The notes under the pieces were generated by a model. That model did no database searches, was not told where the DNA came from, and was given only the letters and a program-made list of their open reading frames with translations. A program made the translations under genes and the position numbers. This document shows, piece after piece, positions 4,627-22,783 of a stretch of DNA of 55,153 nucleotides; within the stretch, counting starts at the first letter, position 1; the number at the start of each line of letters is the position of its first letter. Origin of the DNA: Patescibacteria group bacterium (GTDB taxonomy: Bacteria; Patescibacteriota; Minisyncoccia; Phycocordibacterales; JAKFXT01); the NCBI GenBank assembly GCA_021731245.1, contig JAKFXT010000019.1, forward strand, positions 1 through 55,153. Direction: 5' to 3'.

Positions 4627-6150
4627 TTAATTTTCTTTTTGTCTATACTGCAGTGCTTCCAAAATGTGTTTTGGGAGAACAAATCTTTCGTGTTCTAAAT
4701 CTGCAATGGTGCGTGCTAATTTTATAACTTTGTGATAGCTTCTGGCTGATAGTTGTAATTTTTCGGCTGAATTATTTAAAATCTCTCTTACCTCTTCGTT
4801 TAGTGGCACCAAATTTTCTATATCTTTGGCACTCATATCAGCGTTTAGCATTTTCTTTTTCTTACCCCCAAATCTTTTTTCTTGGTGTAGTCTTGCAGCA
4901 ATAACTTCTTTTTTAAATTCAACGCTGCCTTTGGCTTTTGTTTTTTCCCCCAAAATTTTGTGTTTTACCAAAGGCACTTCAATCCACATATCAATTCTGT
5001 CCGCTATGGGTCCGGAGATTTTCTTTTTGTATCTGCCAATATCTTTTGGTGTGCAGACACAGGGCTTTGTGCTTCCAAAATTCCCACATGGGCACGGGTT
5101 CAGCGCTGCAACTAAAATAAAATTTGCTGGGAAAATGCCACTTCCCTTTACACGAGTTATAGAAACTATTTTATCTTCCAGCGGTTGTCTTAAAGCGTCA
5201 ATTACACGACGCTCAAATTCTGGGAATTCGTCCAGGAAAAGAACTCCGCGATGGGAAAGAGTTACTTCTCCAGGACGAGGAAAAGATCCTCCACCAACCA
5301 AAGATATATAGGAAGCAGTGTGATGTGGGGCACGGAATGGCGGAATTGCTATATAACTTTCTCTTAAATTTCCAGAAACAGAATGAATTGCCGTAACCTC
5401 TAGTATTTCTTCATAAGAAAGTTCTGGGAGTATTGAAGTTAAAGCTCTCGCCAACATAGTTTTGCCAGTTCCTGCTGGGCCATATAAGGCGATATTGTGC
5501 CCGCCGGATGCGGCTATTAAGAGCCCACGCTTTCCTGCTTCTTGTCCTTTGATATCAGAAAAATTTCTGTCATCTAGATTTTCTGGTATTTTTATTTTAG
5601 TTTCTTTTTGTTGTATCAAAACAGGAGCTTTACTCAGAAGATGTTTTATAAGTTCTGATAAATTAGAAACTGGGTAAATTTTAATATCACGAATTAGCGC
5701 GGCTTCTTCAGCGTTATCTTTCGGAACATATATTTCTTTGAATCCTTTTTTCTTAGCTGTTTCAACGAGAGGTAATATTCCAGTAACGGCTCTTAAGTTT
5801 CCATTTAAAGATAACTCACCAATAAATATTTTGTCTTTTGTTTCAAAATCAATTTCTTCTTTGGCCAGTAAATACGAAAGAGCGATAGCGACATCATGAA
5901 GTGGACCTTCCTTTTTTAAATTTGCAGGGGCCAAAGAAACTACAATTTTTTGATTGTGAGATTTGGGAGATGAAAACCCAGAATGTTTTATGGCAGCGGA
6001 AACCCTATCTTTGGCTTCCTCGTTCGCTTTGTCAGCTAATCCTATAATTGAAAAATTGTGAAGACCTTTAGAAAGGTCAACTTCAACATCAATAATAAAT
6101 CCTTCTAATAAATGTGTTTGGGCGCTATGAACTTTCCCAATTTGTGCCAT
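4627..6150 (-). CDS. comM: YifB/ComM Mg-chelatase-like AAA+ ATPase
   Basis: GPAGTGKT, PFRAPHHT, PGEVTLSHRGVLFLDEFPEF, NPCPCG and ARTIADL. Confidence 0.93.
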   Translation of the reverse strand: MAQIGKVHSAQTHLLEGFIIDVEVDLSKGLHNFSIIGLADKANEEAKDRVSAAIKHSGFSSPKSHNQKIVVSLAPANLKKEGPLHDVAIALSYLLAKEEIDFETKDKIFIGELSLNGNLRAVTGILPLVETAKKKGFKEIYVPKDNAEEAALIRDIKIYPVSNLSELIKHLLSKAPVLIQQKETKIKIPENLDDRNFSDIKGQEAGKRGLLIAASGGHNIALYGPAGTGKTMLARALTSILPELSYEEILEVTAIHSVSGNLRESYIAIPPFRAPHHTASYISLVGGGSFPRPGEVTLSHRGVLFLDEFPEFERRVIDALRQPLEDKIVSITRVKGSGIFPANFILVAALNPCPCGNFGSTKPCVCTPKDIGRYKKKISGPIADRIDMWIEVPLVKHKILGEKTKAKGSVEFKKEVIAARLHQEKRFGGKKKKMLNADMSAKDIENLVPLNEEVREILNNSAEKLQLSARSYHKVIKLARTIADLEHERFVLPKHILEALQYRQKEN

Positions 6151-11072: not shown

Positions 11073-11339
11073 CTATTTACTAAGTTCTAGTTTTTTGACG
11101 ACAGAAGCGTAGCGTTTTTCGCTCTTCTTCTTTAAATATGCCATATGGGTGCGACGATCCGCTACCATTTGCAAAAGTCCTCGGCGGGAATGCTTATCCT
11201 TTGGGTTTTTCTTTAAATGACCCGCCAATTCATCAATTCTCTTACTTAATATAGAAATCTGGACCTCAGGAGACCCTGTGTCCTTATCGTGTTTTTGCAC
11301 GACTTTTATTGCTTTTTCCTTCTTTTTCTTAGTAAGCAT
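11073..11339 (-). CDS. rpsO: 30S ribosomal protein S15
   Basis: DTGSPEVQI and KDKHSRRGLLQMV. Confidence 0.97.
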   Translation of the reverse strand: MLTKKKKEKAIKVVQKHDKDTGSPEVQISILSKRIDELAGHLKKNPKDKHSRRGLLQMVADRRTHMAYLKKKSEKRYASVVKKLELSK

Positions 11340-11412
11340 TACTCTATACATTAGCAGATTTTGGGCCTTTTGGCAATGACCTCAAAAAGGGGGTATAATA
11401 TTGTGCGACACC

Positions 11413-11886
11413 ATGGAAAAACTCCCGAATCAGGAAGGATTGGACATAAGGCTTAGAAAGGCCAATATCGAGAACATTCCTGTTCTCATAGAAATTGAAG
11501 AAAGTGCGGGAAATCTTCGTATTTACTCCCCCACCTTAACTGAAGCGGAATGGATTAAGGAGCTTCAGAAAGCAAAAGTTTTTCTTGTAGAAAAAAATGG
11601 AATTGTTGCTGGCAATGTTTCCTATGAAATAAAGAGCAAGGATGAGGCTTATGTTTCTGGCTTGATTACCAAACCAGAATTTCAAGGTAAAGGTGTTGGG
11701 CGCAAGGCTTTGGAAATGATTCTGGATGAATTGAAAGATTACAAAAGAATTACTTTAGTAACTCACCCTGATAATAAAAATGCTTTAGAATTATATAAAT
11801 CATTTGGTTTTGAAATTGAATTTCAAAGTGAAAATCATTTTGGTGATGGAGAAGCGAGAGTTTTTATGGCTTTGGAGAAAAAGTAA
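11413..11886 (+). CDS. GNAT family N-acetyltransferase
   Basis: PEFQGKGVGR acetyl-CoA motif and N..ALELYKSFGF. Confidence 0.9.
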   Translation: MEKLPNQEGLDIRLRKANIENIPVLIEIEESAGNLRIYSPTLTEAEWIKELQKAKVFLVEKNGIVAGNVSYEIKSKDEAYVSGLITKPEFQGKGVGRKALEMILDELKDYKRITLVTHPDNKNALELYKSFGFEIEFQSENHFGDGEARVFMALEKK

Positions 11887-16951: not shown

Positions 16952-17623
16952 ATGAGTGTTTCAATTAAAGAACAATCCATTCTACTCCGAAAAAATGGGG
17001 CTACTTACTCCGAAATTTCTGCCAAACTTAAGGTAAGTCGGGGCCTTCTTTCCAAGTGGTTTGTAGGACTTCCCTTGTCCTCTTCCGAAAAAGAGGGCCT
17101 TTTGAAGCATCAAAAAGAGGTGGTTCTTAGAAGTCGAAGTAAGAGCAAATTGAGTCGCCAAATGAAGAAGGTTTTTGGCGAAAGACAGGCGCTTGTGGGT
17201 GGGCAAAAAAGCTTCAAAAAGTTTCAGGCCGACCCTCGATTTTTGGTCGGACTTTCTATGTATCTTTCTCACGGATCATTCAATAACCCATACCTACAAT
17301 TTAGTTCTGATGATGAGGGGGCGGTCCAAATATTCCTAGATTGGCTCATTCGCTTTCTTGCTGTGCCGGTCTCTTCCATTCGCTGTAGATTGTATATAAA
17401 CAGCAATATCCCCTACTCTGAAGCTCAAAGTGGCTGGATTAGGAAAATAGCTATAAATGATAAGCAGTTTTTGAGCCCGGTAGTGTATAAAACTAGACAG
17501 AAATCCAAAGAAAATGGCTCAAATAAAGGGTTTTTACAGATTACTGTGCCAGGTATCAACAATATACGCACCCTTAGCGTTTGGAAAAACCTTCTTTTTG
17601 AGCTTTATAAGAAAAAAGCTTAA
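16952..17623 (+). CDS. HTH + LAGLIDADG-like protein (paralog 1, acidic motif residue replaced)
   Basis: LRKNGATYSEISAKLKVSRGLLSKW HTH; FLVGLSMYLSHG aligns with the GEG motif of paralogs 2 and 3. Confidence 0.7.
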   Translation: MSVSIKEQSILLRKNGATYSEISAKLKVSRGLLSKWFVGLPLSSSEKEGLLKHQKEVVLRSRSKSKLSRQMKKVFGERQALVGGQKSFKKFQADPRFLVGLSMYLSHGSFNNPYLQFSSDDEGAVQIFLDWLIRFLAVPVSSIRCRLYINSNIPYSEAQSGWIRKIAINDKQFLSPVVYKTRQKSKENGSNKGFLQITVPGINNIRTLSVWKNLLFELYKKKA

Positions 17624-17626
17624 TTG

Positions 17627-17698
17627 TGCCCCCGGCAGGACTCGAACCCACAACAACTGATCCGAAGTCAGTTATGATATCCATTTCACCACGAGGGC
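17627..17698 (-). tRNA. tRNA-Arg(TCG), CCA not encoded
   Basis: Minus strand GCCCTCG...ACTGA-CT-TCG-GA-TCAGT...GGTTCGAGTCC...CGGGGGC-A folds as a cloverleaf. Confidence 0.93.
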
Positions 17699-17762: not shown

Positions 17763-18428
17763 ATGTATATGAGAACAGATAAGAAAGAAGCTTTTGAATT
17801 AAGGAAGCAAGGAAAAACCTTCAATGAGATTTCTAAGAGTCTTGGCATTTCTAAGGGCACTCTCTCCTTCTGGTTTAAGGGTATTGATTGGTCAAGGGAA
17901 ATTTCGGAAAAGAACTTTGTTTTCAACTACTCCCCTGAAAATATAAAGAAAATGCACATAGCCAGACGTCATATGCTTGATAAAAAATATTTATTAGCAC
18001 GTCAGGAAGCCCTAAACGAATTTGATAAATATAAGGAAGAAACGCAATTTGTGGCTGGTATTGTAGCCTATTCTGGTGAGGGTGATCATTCTGTAAAAAA
18101 TGGTATGGCGCGCATAGCAAATTCAAATCCAGGAATTATCCTTATTTTTAAACGTTTTTTAGAGAAATACTATTTTGAAATGTATAAAAAAATACGTGTA
18201 AGCATATTACTTTATCCGGATTTAAATGATGAGGAGTGTTTAAAATATTGGTCAGAAACTTTAGGTGTCTCAATCAAACAATTCCATAAACCAGTACATA
18301 TAATAGGAAAACATAAAAAAAGACGATTGCGATATGGAGTTGGAAGCCTTATAATCAGCAATAAGTTTTTTAAAATTAAACTTTTGGAATTAGAAAACTT
18401 GTGCTTACAACATTTAGCGCGGATATAG
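17763..18428 (+). CDS. HTH + LAGLIDADG-like protein (paralog 2)
   Basis: LRKQGKTFNEISKSLGISKGTLSFW HTH; FVAGIVAYSGEGD, ANSNP and YWS..LG motifs; stop codon lies inside tRNA-Gly. Confidence 0.75.
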   Translation: MYMRTDKKEAFELRKQGKTFNEISKSLGISKGTLSFWFKGIDWSREISEKNFVFNYSPENIKKMHIARRHMLDKKYLLARQEALNEFDKYKEETQFVAGIVAYSGEGDHSVKNGMARIANSNPGIILIFKRFLEKYYFEMYKKIRVSILLYPDLNDEECLKYWSETLGVSIKQFHKPVHIIGKHKKRRLRYGVGSLIISNKFFKIKLLELENLCLQHLARI

Positions 18429-18492
18429 TTTAGTGGTAGAACGCATGCTTGCCAAGCATGGGGCGGGGTTTCGATTACCCCTATCCGCACCA
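18419..18492 (+). tRNA. tRNA-Gly(GCC), CCA encoded
   Basis: GCGGATA/TATCCGC acceptor stem, CATGC-TT-GCC-AA-GCATG, TTCGATT T-loop and ACCA end. Confidence 0.94.
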
Positions 18493-18766: not shown

Positions 18767-19162
18767 GTGAAAGAAAAAAGAGTAAAAAAGACAACAGAAA
18801 AGAGGAAAACAGGGGATTTGGGTGAGTCTATTGCCATTAAGTATTTAGAAGGGAAAGGTTATAAAGTTTTAAAGCAGAACTATCTTAAGCCTTGGGGTGA
18901 GATAGATATTGTAGCTAGGAAGGGAAGCAAGCTCTACTTTATTGAGGTTAAAACCGTTACACATGAAACAAATGGCTCAAATACGTATAGAGCAGAGGAT
19001 AATATTCACCCCTTTAAGCTAAAGCGCCTTGAAAGGACCATAAACTCTTACTTATTAGAGAAAGGAGAAGGTGAGAGCGATTGGCAAATGGACTTGGTAG
19101 TAGTGGCACTAGATAAAGAGAGTAAAAAGGCCAAAGTGAAGTATATAGAGGGAATATTCTAA
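18767..19162 (+). CDS. yraN: YraN (UPF0102) family PD-(D/E)xK nuclease
   Basis: GDLGESIA..YL, GEIDIVA and FIEVKT. Confidence 0.9.
   Translation: MKEKRVKKTTEKRKTGDLGESIAIKYLEGKGYKVLKQNYLKPWGEIDIVARKGSKLYFIEVKTVTHETNGSNTYRAEDNIHPFKLKRLERTINSYLLEKGEGESDWQMDLVVVALDKESKKAKVKYIEGIF
18955..18970. promoter_or_regulatory. parS-like site inside yraN
   Basis: CGTTACACATGAAACA, encoding V-T-H-E-T. Confidence 0.5.
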
Positions 19163-19238
19163 AGGACACTATCGTTTAGTGTTTGTCCTATATTTTGGGA
19201 TATTCAATTTACTCCCAAAAATGCTATAATGTAACTCA

Positions 19239-19634
19239 ATGGAAGCTACTAAGAAATGTCTTTACTGTAATAAATTTTATGCCCCAGATCGTTTTGGTGT
19301 GGCGCTGACCACTTCCCAAAAAGTTTATCGTCGCCAAAAATGTTCGAATTGTTATAGGGAGACAAAACAGAAACTGATACAAAAACATCTTTCTTGGATT
19401 AATGATTATAAAAAGGAGAAAGGATGTACTAGATGTGGTAATATTGACCCGCGAGTCCTTGATTTTCACCATAGGAATGGTAAAGATAAGCTGTTTGGCT
19501 TAGGAACTTTTCGCAGAGCTGTTGGCTTTGAAAGAATAAAAAAGGAAGTTGAAAAGTGTGAAATTGTTTGTGCAAATTGCCACAGAATTTTACATTACGA
19601 AATGAGGCAAGAAAATACAAAAAACGGGGCGTAG
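19239..19634 (+). CDS. HNH endonuclease-like zinc-binding protein
   Basis: CxxC pairs, CTRCG..DPRVLDFHH and CEIVCANCHRILH; stop codon lies inside tRNA-Pro. Confidence 0.85.
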   Translation: MEATKKCLYCNKFYAPDRFGVALTTSQKVYRRQKCSNCYRETKQKLIQKHLSWINDYKKEKGCTRCGNIDPRVLDFHHRNGKDKLFGLGTFRRAVGFERIKKEVEKCEIVCANCHRILHYEMRQENTKNGA

Positions 19635-19695
19635 TATACCGGCAGTACGCTTGTTTTGGGAACAAGTAGACTGGGTTCGATTCCCAGCGCCCCGA
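19625..19695 (+). tRNA. tRNA-Pro(TGG), CCA not encoded
   Basis: CGGGGCG/CGCCCCG acceptor stem, CTTGT-TT-TGG-GA-ACAAG and CTGGG-TTCGATT-CCCAG. Confidence 0.93.
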
Positions 19696-19700
19696 CAATT

Positions 19701-20393
19701 ATGAAATTAAGAAAGATTAGAGGAGGTAATATAGAAGACCTTCAATCTAAAAAATACAATATAGGAGTTGGTATTAGTTTGGGTAACAGATGGTTTACTC
19801 CTTCTAATATCGTAGAAGAGGTAAGGTGGGCTTTGCAGTATACAAAAAAATACGTTGTTATATATGTTGCTGATTCCATACACGCAATTAATTTGGAAGT
19901 CAGAAATAAAATCTCTAAAGAAAAGGCCCTGCGTTCAGCAAATAGGGCTGGAGATAAAATTTTAAAGGAAGTGAAACTTGAAATAGAGAAAAATTTTGAG
20001 TCAATAGATTTCATCAAAATACAATACGCAAAATGGGATGATCTCATTGATGATGATTACAGGAAAAAATTGGCATACCTTTATTCCTTCTATGGTAAAA
20101 ATGATAAATTTAAATTTAACATCCACAATCTTGTAAAAAGCCATCTTTCAAAAGAAGGAGATAGATTTTCTGAAGAAGATATTCATAAATTAGGAACATA
20201 TATTATTGAAGAAATGCCAGAAGTTATGTGTAGAGTTGGTATAAAAGGCAACGTATACGAAGCATACACGTACCCTTTTGATGGAGAGTTGCCAAAGTTT
20301 GTAGAGGATATTCAGAAAGGAATAATTTTCCCTGAAATAAAAGAAAGCATAATGAATACAGAGCCGAAAGTGTTCCTTGAAGTTAACCTGTAA
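19701..20393 (+). CDS. tRNA-dependent cyclodipeptide synthase (CDPS, AlbC-like)
   Basis: GISLGNRWF matches AlbC-type GISxGNxYF with catalytic Ser; YIIEEMP matches YxxxExP; YTYP; 230 aa. Confidence 0.8.
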   Translation: MKLRKIRGGNIEDLQSKKYNIGVGISLGNRWFTPSNIVEEVRWALQYTKKYVVIYVADSIHAINLEVRNKISKEKALRSANRAGDKILKEVKLEIEKNFESIDFIKIQYAKWDDLIDDDYRKKLAYLYSFYGKNDKFKFNIHNLVKSHLSKEGDRFSEEDIHKLGTYIIEEMPEVMCRVGIKGNVYEAYTYPFDGELPKFVEDIQKGIIFPEIKESIMNTEPKVFLEVNL

Positions 20394-20425
20394 CCCCCAC
20401 CCATTTTCTTTAGTTCTATACTCAT

Positions 20426-20743
20426 ATGTCACCAATACTTAAAACAGCGATTGTTAATGCTCTAGGGACAGCCCTGTATATTGCTCTAATTTCTACTTTT
20501 ATGTTTTATGGGCCAGAGTTTTTGGGCGAACCTGATACACCGGACTCTGTTTTGCTTCCCATAATGATGATATCTCTTTTTGTTTTTTCAGCCGCTATAA
20601 CTGCCGGACTTGTTATAGGAAGACCTATAATGTGGTTTTTGGAGGGAAAGAAAAGGGAAGCGGTCACGCTCTTTGTTTACACTCTCGCTATTTTCCTAGT
20701 AATTATTATAGGAATAGTCGGTTTAGTTGCCTTTGTTCACTAA
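20426..20743 (+). CDS. small integral membrane protein
   Basis: 105 aa with three hydrophobic helices. Confidence 0.75.
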   Translation: MSPILKTAIVNALGTALYIALISTFMFYGPEFLGEPDTPDSVLLPIMMISLFVFSAAITAGLVIGRPIMWFLEGKKREAVTLFVYTLAIFLVIIIGIVGLVAFVH

Positions 20744-21963
20744 TTTGTCAGTTCTTGTACGAGAAGATTTTTCAAATAATCAAATTTGTTTGCACGGAAG
20801 GTGAGGACTTTGCTTACTAAATTGCCCGCAAGATATTCACTTAAGTTTTGATTTGTACTCTCTTGAATGCTTCTGTTGATGTGAGAGAGAGTGATGGCGC
20901 GTAAATCTCTTGCAGAGGTTGTGTCTTCGGTTGTGGTGGTGACAATAATTCCTACTACTTTTTTCTCACTTACTTTTACTACAGCGCCACCTGATGAGCC
21001 CTTTTGCGCTAAGACAGAGCCACCTAAAGACATTAAATCCAAAGTAGTCTCTTTGAAGGTGAAGAATTGTTTGATGGTGGAGACGGTGGAGGAGATATAT
21101 AAATTTTGTATGACGGTAATGCCTCCAAGAAAGCCAGCGGGGTAAGCGGTGACTACATAAGAATCCGCTAAAGCAGATTTTTCATCTGGTTCCTCTGCGT
21201 TAAATAGAACATAGGGGAATGTGACAGGGAGTGGCTTATCTTTATTCGCTGAGCTTGTGATTAGGATCAAGGCGAAGTCGTGTTCACCAGTTCCAAGTGG
21301 ATTCTCTTCGCTTAAATTTTTCTTATTCTTTTCAATCCAAGGAGGGGAGATGTATAGAAGCTCTCCTCTGTAAGCGGCTGTTGCAGGACTCCCTGTTCTT
21401 ATAACGCAATCAATATTGTTGGGGGTTGGATAATCTTTCAGTAGAAAATATTGGGCTAGGTGAGCGTTTGTGAGTACTACACCGCGTTCGTCTATTATGA
21501 CACCGCTTCCTGTGAGTGGTCTCAAAACACTTCCAGCCTCGGTGTAGCAGAGAATGTTCACCGCTGCTTTTCTTGCCAATTCATTTACTTCATTTGCGCT
21601 TGGGGCCGGTTGCGGAGGAGTTTCTGCTATTGGCTTAATAGAAAGGGTGAGTGTTTCTTCTATTGGTTTTAATGTTTCTTTTATTGGGGTATTTGTTTTG
21701 GGAGTCGTGGCAGTTTTTGTTGGGGTACTTTCTATTTTGGTTATTGGTTTTGTTTCTAGTGTAGTGGTTGCTTTGGGTTCATTGGCAATTTTTTCTTCGG
21801 TTGTGGTCGCAATAAGTGTTTTGAGTGGGGTAGAGGTGGACGTTTGCACTTCCTCCTTAACATAAGTAGAAGGCGTGCTCGTAGACATAAGATTCGCCGC
21901 TACAAGTAGGGAAATAAAGCCAACAGAAGCTATTTTTATTAGCATTTCGAACAGAGAAAGCAT
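20740..21963 (-). CDS. secreted/anchored trypsin-like serine protease
   Basis: N-terminal hydrophobic segment, Thr/Pro-rich linker, triad motifs TNAHL, DFA and GSSGG. Confidence 0.85.
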   Translation of the reverse strand: MLSLFEMLIKIASVGFISLLVAANLMSTSTPSTYVKEEVQTSTSTPLKTLIATTTEEKIANEPKATTTLETKPITKIESTPTKTATTPKTNTPIKETLKPIEETLTLSIKPIAETPPQPAPSANEVNELARKAAVNILCYTEAGSVLRPLTGSGVIIDERGVVLTNAHLAQYFLLKDYPTPNNIDCVIRTGSPATAAYRGELLYISPPWIEKNKKNLSEENPLGTGEHDFALILITSSANKDKPLPVTFPYVLFNAEEPDEKSALADSYVVTAYPAGFLGGITVIQNLYISSTVSTIKQFFTFKETTLDLMSLGGSVLAQKGSSGGAVVKVSEKKVVGIIVTTTTEDTTSARDLRAITLSHINRSIQESTNQNLSEYLAGNLVSKVLTFRANKFDYLKNLLVQELTN

Positions 21964-22029: not shown

Positions 22030-22035
22030 GTGCAT

Positions 22036-22698
22036 ATGAAATTGGCTTTAAGAAAAAAAGCTGAGGGACTACGCTTAGGAGGATATTCTTATACTTATAT
22101 ATCTAAAAAATTAAATGTATCAAAAGGCACTTTAAGTCAGTGGCTTTCTCTTGTTCCTTATACTCCAAATAAAGAAACCATAGCCGTTATAGGGAAAGCC
22201 AGAGTGGCTTCTGGGTTGGTAAAACATAAGTTAAAACTTAAATCTATAGCTGATGCTAAAACAGAAGCTGAAAAAGAAATAGGGAATCTTTCCGAAAGAG
22301 ATATTTTTATGTTGGGTTTAGGTATCTATATTGGTGAAGGAGCGAAAACCCACAGCATTATACGCCTTATTAATTCAAATCCTGATATAATCAAATTCGC
22401 AGTAAAATGGTTTAAGGAATCTTGCGGTTTAAGTATAAGCAATATTAGGATTAGGTTGCATCTTTATCCTGATAATAACGAAAGTAAATGCATTGATTTT
22501 TGGTCTAAAGTCACAGGCATTCCTAGAAACAATTTTCATAAAACCTATATTGATAGGAGGGTAAATAAAAAACTTGCGAAAAGAGGTAAATTGCCTTATG
22601 GTACTGCACATATTGGCATTAAAAGTTTGGGGCAAAAGAAATTTGGGGTTTTTCTTTCAAGAAAGATTAATGCCTGGATTGATAGGGCTTTGAAATAA
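22036..22698 (+). CDS. HTH + LAGLIDADG-like protein (paralog 3)
   Basis: LRLGGYSYTYISKKLNVSKGTLSQW HTH; FMLGLGIYIGEGAK, INSNP, FWS..TG and LPYG; ends 11 nt before tRNA-Gly(TCC). Confidence 0.75.
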   Translation: MKLALRKKAEGLRLGGYSYTYISKKLNVSKGTLSQWLSLVPYTPNKETIAVIGKARVASGLVKHKLKLKSIADAKTEAEKEIGNLSERDIFMLGLGIYIGEGAKTHSIIRLINSNPDIIKFAVKWFKESCGLSISNIRIRLHLYPDNNESKCIDFWSKVTGIPRNNFHKTYIDRRVNKKLAKRGKLPYGTAHIGIKSLGQKKFGVFLSRKINAWIDRALK

Positions 22699-22709
22699 AA
22701 CACATAATT

Positions 22710-22783
22710 GCGGGATTAGTTTAATGGTAAAATGGGAGTTTTCCAAACTCTTGATGGGAGTTCGATTCTCCCATCCCGCACCA
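22710..22783 (+). tRNA. tRNA-Gly(TCC), CCA encoded
   Basis: GCGGGAT/ATCCCGC, GGAGT-TT-TCC-AA-ACTCT, GGGAG-TTCGATT-CTCCC and ACCA. Confidence 0.95.

Follow-up and report, generated by a model that had tools for sequence, protein, structure and literature searches.

Why does the genome of a patescibacterium, a member of the candidate phyla radiation, carry a gene for a cyclodipeptide synthase (CDPS) five nucleotides (nt) behind a transfer RNA (tRNA) gene, and are the two genes functionally coupled? The locus lies on a stretch of 55,153 nt from Patescibacteria group bacterium (NCBI GenBank assembly GCA_021731245.1, contig JAKFXT010000019.1, positions 1 to 55,153 of the forward strand; hereafter the window), in which a first-pass annotation, made from the letters alone, had placed a putative CDPS gene directly downstream of tRNA-Pro and had proposed that an HNH endonuclease gene, the tRNA, the synthase gene and a membrane-protein gene form a minimal secondary-metabolite unit, co-transcribed with a possible substrate tRNA. 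Many actinobacterial CDPS genes are clustered with oxidases or P450s. The explanation that best accounts for the window locus, to which we give a probability of roughly three in four, is that of an active enzyme resembling ParcuCDPS, encoded by the cargo of an accessory slot and probably expressed by read-through from the tRNA.

The gene behind tRNA-Pro encodes a cyclodipeptide synthase

The open reading frame (ORF) at 19701-20393 contains the three motifs on which its initial assignment had been based, GISLGNRWF (residues 24-32), YIIEEMP (167-173) and YTYP (189-192), and its ATG indeed follows the tRNA-Pro discriminator after five nt (CAATT). Searched against the curated profile hidden Markov models (HMMs) for CDPSs, the protein narrowly passed the family cut-offs of both PF16715 (27.9 bits, cut-off 27) and TIGR04539 (47.7 bits, cut-off 45), and it aligned without gaps over residues 1-228 to ParcuCDPS (PDB 7qb8; E 3.6e-65), with identity at 110 of 229 aligned positions (48%). 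ParcuCDPS, from Parcubacteria bacterium RAAC4_OD1_1, is CDPS 90 of Gondry et al. (2018) and is represented by PDB 7QB8 and six mutant entries (Sutherland et al., 2022). An AlphaFold model built with 44 homologues (predicted local distance difference test, pLDDT, 95.7; predicted template modelling score, pTM, 0.89) adopts the Rossmann-like fold that resembles class-Ic aminoacyl-tRNA synthetases; its top Foldseek matches are the seven ParcuCDPS crystal entries (template modelling scores of 0.84-0.91), followed by other CDPSs, such that ranks 1-45 among the matches listed are all CDPS structures and a tyrosyl-tRNA synthetase comes in at rank 50. Most homologues among the 120 matches listed carry the PF16715 label. 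A longer, TTG-started version of the ORF from 19656 was discarded: it overlaps the tRNA, and the homologues all align from M1 at 19701. Sequence and model thus agree in identifying a genuine, intact CDPS of the ParcuCDPS-like clade. Enzymes of this kind are known, one of them, from a relative, with a solved structure, and the window protein is a diverged new example.

The family is of moderate size, with 250 representative clusters at E ≤0.001 (24 at E ≤1e-30) and 215 matches in a word-indexed homologue search. In the tree the window protein falls into a well supported bacterial clade of 55 rows, inside which its position is not resolved; the proteins of loci L020 and L001 are its nearest relatives. 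Four long representatives, P0121 (390 aa), P0148 (389 aa), P0202 (624 aa) and P0237 (716 aa), have the CDPS part at one end and may be fused forms.

Conserved active-site residues predict a histidine-containing product

The catalytic residues S26, D58, Y167, E171 and Y191 are all present in the window protein; among 76 family sequences, S26, Y167 and E171 occur in every one (76/76) and Y191 and D58 in 74/76 each. In ParcuCDPS, S26, Y167, E171 and Y191 form the active site, D58 is the essential partner of S26, and Y55, E174 and Y189 select histidine in pocket P1, as mutants showed (PMC7613923). This triad is intact in the window protein and complete in 29/76 family sequences. The assignment to the XYP subfamily with Asn as X also held: by the definition of that group, with Y and P at the equivalents of AlbC positions 202 and 203 and an unconserved X at position 40 (numbering from PMC7613923), the window protein has Y191 followed by the retained P192 and an N at position 29 (S26+3), as does ParcuCDPS, which its authors placed in the XYP group (PMC7613923). 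Because the catalytic and histidine-selecting residues are all kept, and because histidyl-tRNA synthetase (HisRS) and tRNA-His are encoded in the genome, the window CDPS can be read as predicted to be active, with His-tRNA(His) as its first substrate. Histidine is accepted by two of about 120 validated CDPSs (abstract of PMC7613923).

By analogy with the characterised homologue, His-tRNA(His) would bind in P1 through Y55, E174 and Y189, and its histidyl group would pass to S26, polarised by D58. A second aminoacyl-tRNA, for which Pro-tRNA(Pro) would be an uncertain best guess, would then give the dipeptidyl-enzyme, and cyclisation aided by Y167, E171 and Y191 would give an unmodified cyclo(His-X). 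ParcuCDPS expressed in E. coli makes 44% cyclo(His-Pro) and 56% cyclo(His-Glu) (PMC5816076). For the window enzyme, an unmodified cyclo(His-X) is probably the product and His-Pro a possible version of it, so that of the earlier expectation of a proline- or glycine-containing cyclodipeptide the first half is possible by homology, and nothing points to glycine.

Comparison of the two substrate pockets gave a divided result. The P1 triad is kept, and the five residues after the Y-P motif (193-197) read FDGEL in the window protein versus YKTRI in the ParcuCDPS cluster. FDGEL is the commonest version in the family, with D194 in 58/76 and E196 in 34/76 sequences. In other CDPSs this stretch lines pocket P2, and it may do so here. 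The window enzyme might then mainly make a cyclo(His-X) other than cyclo(His-Pro) or cyclo(His-Glu), a suggestion that we hold tentatively and consider rather less likely than its converse. It agrees with the observation that P2 of ParcuCDPS is positively charged, a feature that its authors tie to the use of Glu (PMC7613923), but the placing of residues 193-197 in P2 is itself transferred from other enzymes, the interactions of ParcuCDPS with Pro are unclear according to the same authors (PMC7613923), and CDPSs are often loose in the choice of their second substrate (PMC5816076).

The gene fills a variable slot behind a housekeeping tRNA

A CDPS was found in 4/61 related genomes, namely that of the window (G000), one with a protein at 62% identity that belongs to another family of the order, and two with distant proteins (30% and 24%); it was not found in 4/4 same-genus genomes (G001-G004) or in 11/11 same-family genomes, most of them at least 89% complete. 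The tRNA-Pro and the neighbouring protease gene are kept in all four congeners, where the slot behind the tRNA holds other cargos, all co-directional with it: a DUF4268 protein in G002, a peptidase S51 (Pfam) in G001 and G004, and a 209-aa ORF of no known family in G003, whose gene order is YraN, tRNA-Pro, this ORF, membrane protein, protease, tRNA-Gly(tcc). Similarity between the window and G003 ends at the 3' end of the tRNA and restarts at the ATG of the membrane-protein gene. It follows from these breakpoints and from the lineage-specific cargos that the CDPS gene sits in a variable slot of one gene. Its GC content is 31.7%, compared to 38.2% for the window, and the best reading is that of a horizontally acquired, low-GC accessory gene in this slot. 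Sister loci L063 and L072 were uninformative on a mobile cassette with fixed ends, which we dropped: their homology is limited to the ORF (76% nucleotide identity). No member of the CDPS family was found in viral contigs.

As the sole tRNA-Pro detected in the 95.6%-complete assembly, the tRNA itself is a housekeeping gene rather than a dedicated copy; in G001-G004 the anticodon stem of the orthologous tRNA carries a compensatory change. That the tRNA at the slot is a tRNA-Pro is most likely incidental. The arrangement of HNH gene, tRNA and CDPS gene is no assembly artefact, because contigs of three more DNA runs of the same study cross the junction with 0 differences. A short contig from DNA run X3 (record 6) keeps the 5' half of the tRNA-Pro (19625-19672) with different sequence upstream, and probably derives from a related strain or species that lacks the HNH gene.

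Neighbouring genes vary independently of the synthase

Family loci were collected from genome contigs (36 loci, flanks up to 4 kb) and metagenome contigs (70 loci, flanks up to 3 kb). The genome contigs yielded no relative in a scan with a single sequence and the 36 loci in an alignment-based scan. The 106 loci fall into 89 clusters at 95% nucleotide identity, and one locus was counted per cluster.

A membrane protein with three hydrophobic stretches does lie downstream of the CDPS gene, as had been noted, but the proposed minimal unit did not survive comparison, its partners varying independently of the CDPS in congeners and family loci. G003 has the membrane protein (59% identity) and no CDPS; the membrane-protein family occurs in 15/61 relatives versus two with a close CDPS; in the one genome with both, G045, the genes are about 200 kb apart; and a homologue of the membrane protein was near a CDPS gene in 1/36 of the first loci by blastp and in 1/110 by tblastn (L008 in both). 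The membrane-protein gene is part of the conserved backbone and unlinked to the CDPS. The HNH gene, whose stop codon lies 10 nt within the tRNA-Pro, is absent at the same place in G003, and shared upstream sequence precedes the tRNA in G001-G004; no HNH homologue was found in any CDPS family locus. By these sequence comparisons the HNH gene is likewise a neighbour, an insertion relative to G003, and not a partner of the CDPS. Among 150 immediate neighbours of the 89 clusters, a Pfam scan found neither a shared or universal partner nor a cyclodipeptide oxidase, P450, 2-oxoglutarate oxygenase or prenyltransferase.

A selected module of tRNA-Pro and CDPS, in which the enzyme shares a transcript with the substrate tRNA that it uses up and to which the HNH and membrane proteins belong, is hence very unlikely in our estimation. 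It would make sense of the 5-nt spacing and of Pro-tRNA(Pro) being a second substrate of the characterised homologue (PMC7613923, PMC5816076), and the archaeal locus L030, in which HisRS precedes a homologue by 45 nt and tRNA-His lies 1.8 kb upstream, offers something of a parallel. The expected linkage to the substrate tRNA in homologues was nevertheless not seen: tRNA-Pro is present in the flanks of 0/106 family loci, about a dozen kinds of tRNA occur directly upstream (for Gln, Ser, Arg, Glu, Asn, Gly, Leu and Ile), congeners keep the tRNA-Pro, the only one of the genome, with unrelated genes behind it, and the membrane protein and HNH gene come and go without the CDPS.

Co-directional tRNAs are likely over-represented upstream of family members

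A tRNA lies within 4 kb in 15/36 genome loci, upstream and co-directional in 14, and eight of the 15 show tRNA-Gln. Over the whole set, a co-directional upstream tRNA was present within 100 nt in 7/79 clusters and within 300 nt in 12/75, after exclusion of four clusters without an N-terminus and of clusters with short upstream sequence; L090 (tRNA-Leu 23 nt upstream) entered neither count, as its best alignment segment started late, and L054 (tRNA-Ile 84 nt upstream) did not enter the 300-nt count, as its contig was too short upstream. One further cluster has an upstream tRNA on the opposite strand, and none has a co-directional tRNA within 300 nt downstream (0/63). The corresponding values were 12/700 (100 nt) and 19/693 (300 nt) for the genes of G000, and 8/411 and 12/390 for flank genes of the same loci. 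Relative to the flank genes, Fisher's test gave odds ratios of 4.9 (p 0.005) at 100 nt and 6.0 (p 7e-5) at 300 nt, p-values that overstate the case, as the enrichment rests on a crude ORF caller and on mutually related loci. The tRNA-adjacent cases are dispersed over the family tree, and the upstream tRNAs comprise Gln(ctg), Gln(ttg), Ser(gga), Ser(tga), Ser(gct/act), Arg(cct), Arg(tct), Glu(ctc), Asn(gtt), Gly(tcc), Leu(gag) and Ile(tat). In light of its direction and of this variety of tRNAs, the moderate, 5-6 fold excess is likely real.

Two explanations suit the excess, preferential gain of genes on the 3' side of tRNAs and selection for expression from tRNA promoters, and we favour the former because the same slot holds different cargos within the genus. 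Were selection for the position at work family-wide, CDPS genes would borrow strong tRNA promoters and synthesis would follow tRNA expression. This we think unlikely, if worth keeping in mind: the upstream excess set against 0/63 downstream, the scatter of cases on the tree, four loci whose gaps of 3-8 nt could not accommodate a separate promoter, and further loci in which a tRNA, one or two genes and then the CDPS gene all run in the same direction are what it would predict, but 63/75 clusters have no tRNA within 300 nt, and unrelated genes fill the same slot in the same orientation within the genus, so that the slot itself draws in genes. An early pattern of Gln, Glu and His had suggested substrate-matched tRNAs, an idea that we abandoned once metagenome loci added Ile, Ser, Arg, Gly and Leu, several of the tRNA-Gln loci moreover being syntenic. 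In the titles and abstract openings surveyed, and by terms within PMC5767969, linkage of CDPS genes to tRNA genes or to SET genes is not described.

Two loci gave unusual tRNA calls, which may be caller artefacts. In L062 (about 740-1860), six tRNA genes lie in the 1.2 kb before the CDPS gene, three of them co-directional tRNA-Ser, one with the anticodon ACT, and in L110 (about 700) ARAGORN called a tRNA with a four-base anticodon (ccaa).

Expression would depend on read-through from the tRNA

Neither a promoter nor a Shine-Dalgarno site would fit into the 5-nt spacer. A search for RNA sequencing runs covering 19200-20800 listed none. On the plus strand, the stretch from the tRNA to the end of the membrane-protein gene has no terminator-like site, and the region contains seven promoter-like sites compared to 8.8 +/- 2.8 in shuffled sequence, not above chance. 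With the ATG so close behind the tRNA, the most likely source of CDPS transcription is read-through of the tRNA-Pro (or HNH) transcript. L009, L029 and L013 have similarly tight gaps, of 3-8 nt, after a tRNA-Gln, and neither the window tRNA-Pro nor these three tRNAs have an encoded CCA. Maturation of the tRNA 3' end would then set the 5' end of the mRNA and leave an almost leaderless CDPS message. A fuller scheme, in which such processing yields the near-leaderless mRNA, the output of histidine cyclodipeptide tracks tRNA expression and the FDGEL type makes a cyclo(His-X) not yet described, is one that we regard as distinctly improbable.

Genes around the synthase in the window and in the family

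The wider window region holds four tRNA genes between 17.6 and 22.8 kb (Table 1), so that the tRNA-Gly/Pro cluster recognised at first is present, with a tRNA-Arg on the minus strand as well. The membrane-protein ORF overlaps at its 3' end the stop of the protease gene.

Table 1. Coordinates of features in the window and, where a locus or contig is named, in related loci and elsewhere in the genome.
Feature	Position	Strand	Remarks
CDPS ORF, 230 aa	19701..20393	+	XYP type, ParcuCDPS-like
tRNA-Pro(UGG), CCA not encoded	19625..19695	+	Rfam bounds, 59.4 bits vs cut-off 29; ARAGORN bounds (tgg) 19625-19696
Spacer CAATT, 5 nt	19696..19700	+	discriminator A19695 to CDPS ATG at 19701
Promoter-like TTTACA-16-GAAAAT	19589..19616	+	candidate only; 8 nt before tRNA, inside end of HNH ORF
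HNH endonuclease gene	19239..19634	+	phrog_2255 'HNH endonuclease', E 1.2e-26; no HNH match in Pfam scan
Membrane protein, 105 aa, three hydrophobic segments	20426..20743	+	no family match
Trypsin-like protease gene, convergent	20740-21963	-	PF13365
tRNA-Arg(tcg)	17626-17698	-	ARAGORN and Rfam
tRNA-Gly(gcc)	18419-18492	+	ARAGORN and Rfam
tRNA-Gly(tcc)	22710-22783	+	ARAGORN and Rfam
Congener slot cargo, L111	3083-3712	-	
Congener slot cargo, L112	399-1331		
Congener slot cargo, L119	2389-3210	-	
Congener slot cargo, L118	2679-3392	-	
SET-domain gene, L009	4696-5193		
SET-domain gene, L016	4695-5168		
SET-domain gene, L041	3531-3968		
SET-domain gene, L047	3703-4167		
SET-domain gene, L055	654-1169		
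SET-domain gene, L065	3695-4189		
SET-domain gene, L079	1243-1695		
Endonuclease-like gene	16952-17623		
Endonuclease-like gene	17763-18428		
Endonuclease-like gene	19239-19634	+	the HNH gene above
Endonuclease-like gene	22030-22698		
Endonuclease-like gene, contig C11 of G000	11082-11675	-	
Endonuclease-like gene, contig C4 of G000	5474-5659		

Several family loci have neighbours connected with tRNA charging. In the DPANN loci L086 (1485-5337) and L089 (70-3601) the CDPS gene lies between pheS and pheT; in the two nearest relatives of the window protein, L001 and L020 (1646-5253), pheT precedes it and a C39-like peptidase gene follows; the archaeal locus with HisRS and tRNA-His upstream is L030 (2164-4654); GatD lies 3' of the CDPS in L031 (4001-5988) and MnmA in L032 (3650-5784); a D-aminoacyl-tRNA deacylase is found in L025 and a peptidyl-tRNA hydrolase in L065. 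An enrichment of translation genes was considered and set aside, since about 12/150 neighbours is not clearly above expectation, the background being a rough estimate. One might nonetheless ask whether the family serves aminoacyl-tRNA housekeeping, sensing or draining His-tRNA, with the cyclodipeptide as a side activity and no exported metabolite intended. To this we attach hardly any credence. The charging-related neighbours (PheT, PheS, HisRS, GatD, MnmA, the deacylase and the hydrolase) among the 150 of the 89 clusters, and the lack of classical tailoring genes in that same sample, are in its favour; yet the figure of about 12/150 is near a rough, uncomputed estimate for a small, translation-rich genome, the distribution is patchy (4/61 relatives), and the characterised homologue makes cyclodipeptides both in cells and in vitro (PMC5816076, PMC7613923).

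A second recurrent neighbour is a small SET-domain protein (145-171 aa), encoded directly 3' of the CDPS gene and co-directional with it after a gap of 6-44 nt in 7/73 clusters. These cases are dispersed over the tree, and SET genes, which prokaryotes seldom carry, occur in 1/14 control genomes and not in G000; the pair may be a two-gene cluster with a methyltransferase. Literature containing both CDPS and SET terms concerned fungal histone methylation only.

Endonuclease-like genes adjoin tRNA genes across G000. They comprise two HNH-like genes and four paralogues, each about 220 aa long and bearing a helix-turn-helix at the N-terminus. The Atlas cluster nearest to the paralogues is automatically named 'putative LAGLIDADG homing endonuclease' (score 0.97), their Pfam helix-turn-helix matches are weak and below cut-off, and PHROGs gave a weak DNA-binding match for one of three scanned. 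Most of the genes run up to the 5' end of a co-directional tRNA, or about 10 nt into it (Gly gcc, Pro tgg, Gly tcc, Arg cct, Arg tct); tRNA-Arg(tcg) has one directly at its 3' end, and a homologue in G004 abuts tRNA-Gly(tcc). G003 has no copies beside tRNA-Pro and tRNA-Gly(tcc).

Discussion

Our reading of the locus, a predicted active ParcuCDPS-like enzyme carried as slot cargo and probably transcribed with the tRNA before it, has to be weighed against several points in addition to the caveat on the enrichment given above. Both CDPS HMM cut-offs were exceeded by a small margin only. The second substrate is uncertain, FDGEL taking the place of YKTRI in the characterised enzyme. A genome search with TIGR02651 for RNase Z, the candidate for freeing the mRNA, returned only weak matches (22 and 19 bits versus 293), and with nothing above the cut-off we dropped this enzyme from the scheme. 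As to how the gene arrived, a Pfam scan of eight neighbouring ORFs showed no integrase, and 19150-20800 contains only short repeats of chance size, none of them repeating the tRNA end; within the sequence scanned, a tRNA-targeted integrative island is therefore not supported.

Genomic islands insert at the 3' ends of tRNA genes. Akin to such islands, the window gene starts exactly at the end of a tRNA, the cargo varies among congeners and its GC content is lower; unlike them, the cargo is a single gene, with neither integrase nor flanking repeat in the sequence scanned. Co-transcription of a tRNA with a downstream protein gene also has precedents, in the E. coli tRNA-tufB operon and in the tRNA punctuation of mitochondrial transcripts. 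The window resembles these in having a protein gene that follows a co-directional tRNA too closely for a promoter to fit in between, so that processing would define the mRNA 5' end, and differs in its gap of 5 nt without a Shine-Dalgarno site, in the RNase Z result and in that co-transcription is here predicted.

With ParcuCDPS, the window enzyme shares its length (230 aa), the gap-free alignment over residues 1-228, the fold, the catalytic residues, the histidine triad, the XYP signature with N and the superphylum of its host. The two are only 48% identical and differ in residues 193-197, and the product of ParcuCDPS has been measured whereas that of the window enzyme is predicted from homology. 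Their surroundings differ too: the ParcuCDPS locus L021 has no tRNA within 4 kb, and in L019, a member of the same 95% cluster, the neighbours are a pyridoxal phosphate (PLP)-dependent decarboxylase and a semialdehyde dehydrogenase. The general CDPSs AlbC, YvmC and Rv2275 have in common with the window protein the Rossmann-like fold and the catalytic Ser, Tyr, Glu and Tyr, but the window protein is only 15-19% identical to those structures and has no adjoining tailoring genes.

What is known of the enzyme class is unchanged by this locus, whose interest is modest and lies in the second-substrate pocket and in the family's pattern of flanking tRNAs. Known makers of histidine-containing cyclodipeptides are few, and the window gene adds a diverged example with the same histidine pocket; since it combines the same P1 with a different stretch behind the Y-P motif, it would offer a natural test case for how the second substrate is selected. 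The slot at the tRNA end, the excess of tRNAs upstream of family members and the gaps of 3-8 nt are three leads on how genome-reduced symbionts may gain and express their few genes for secondary metabolites.

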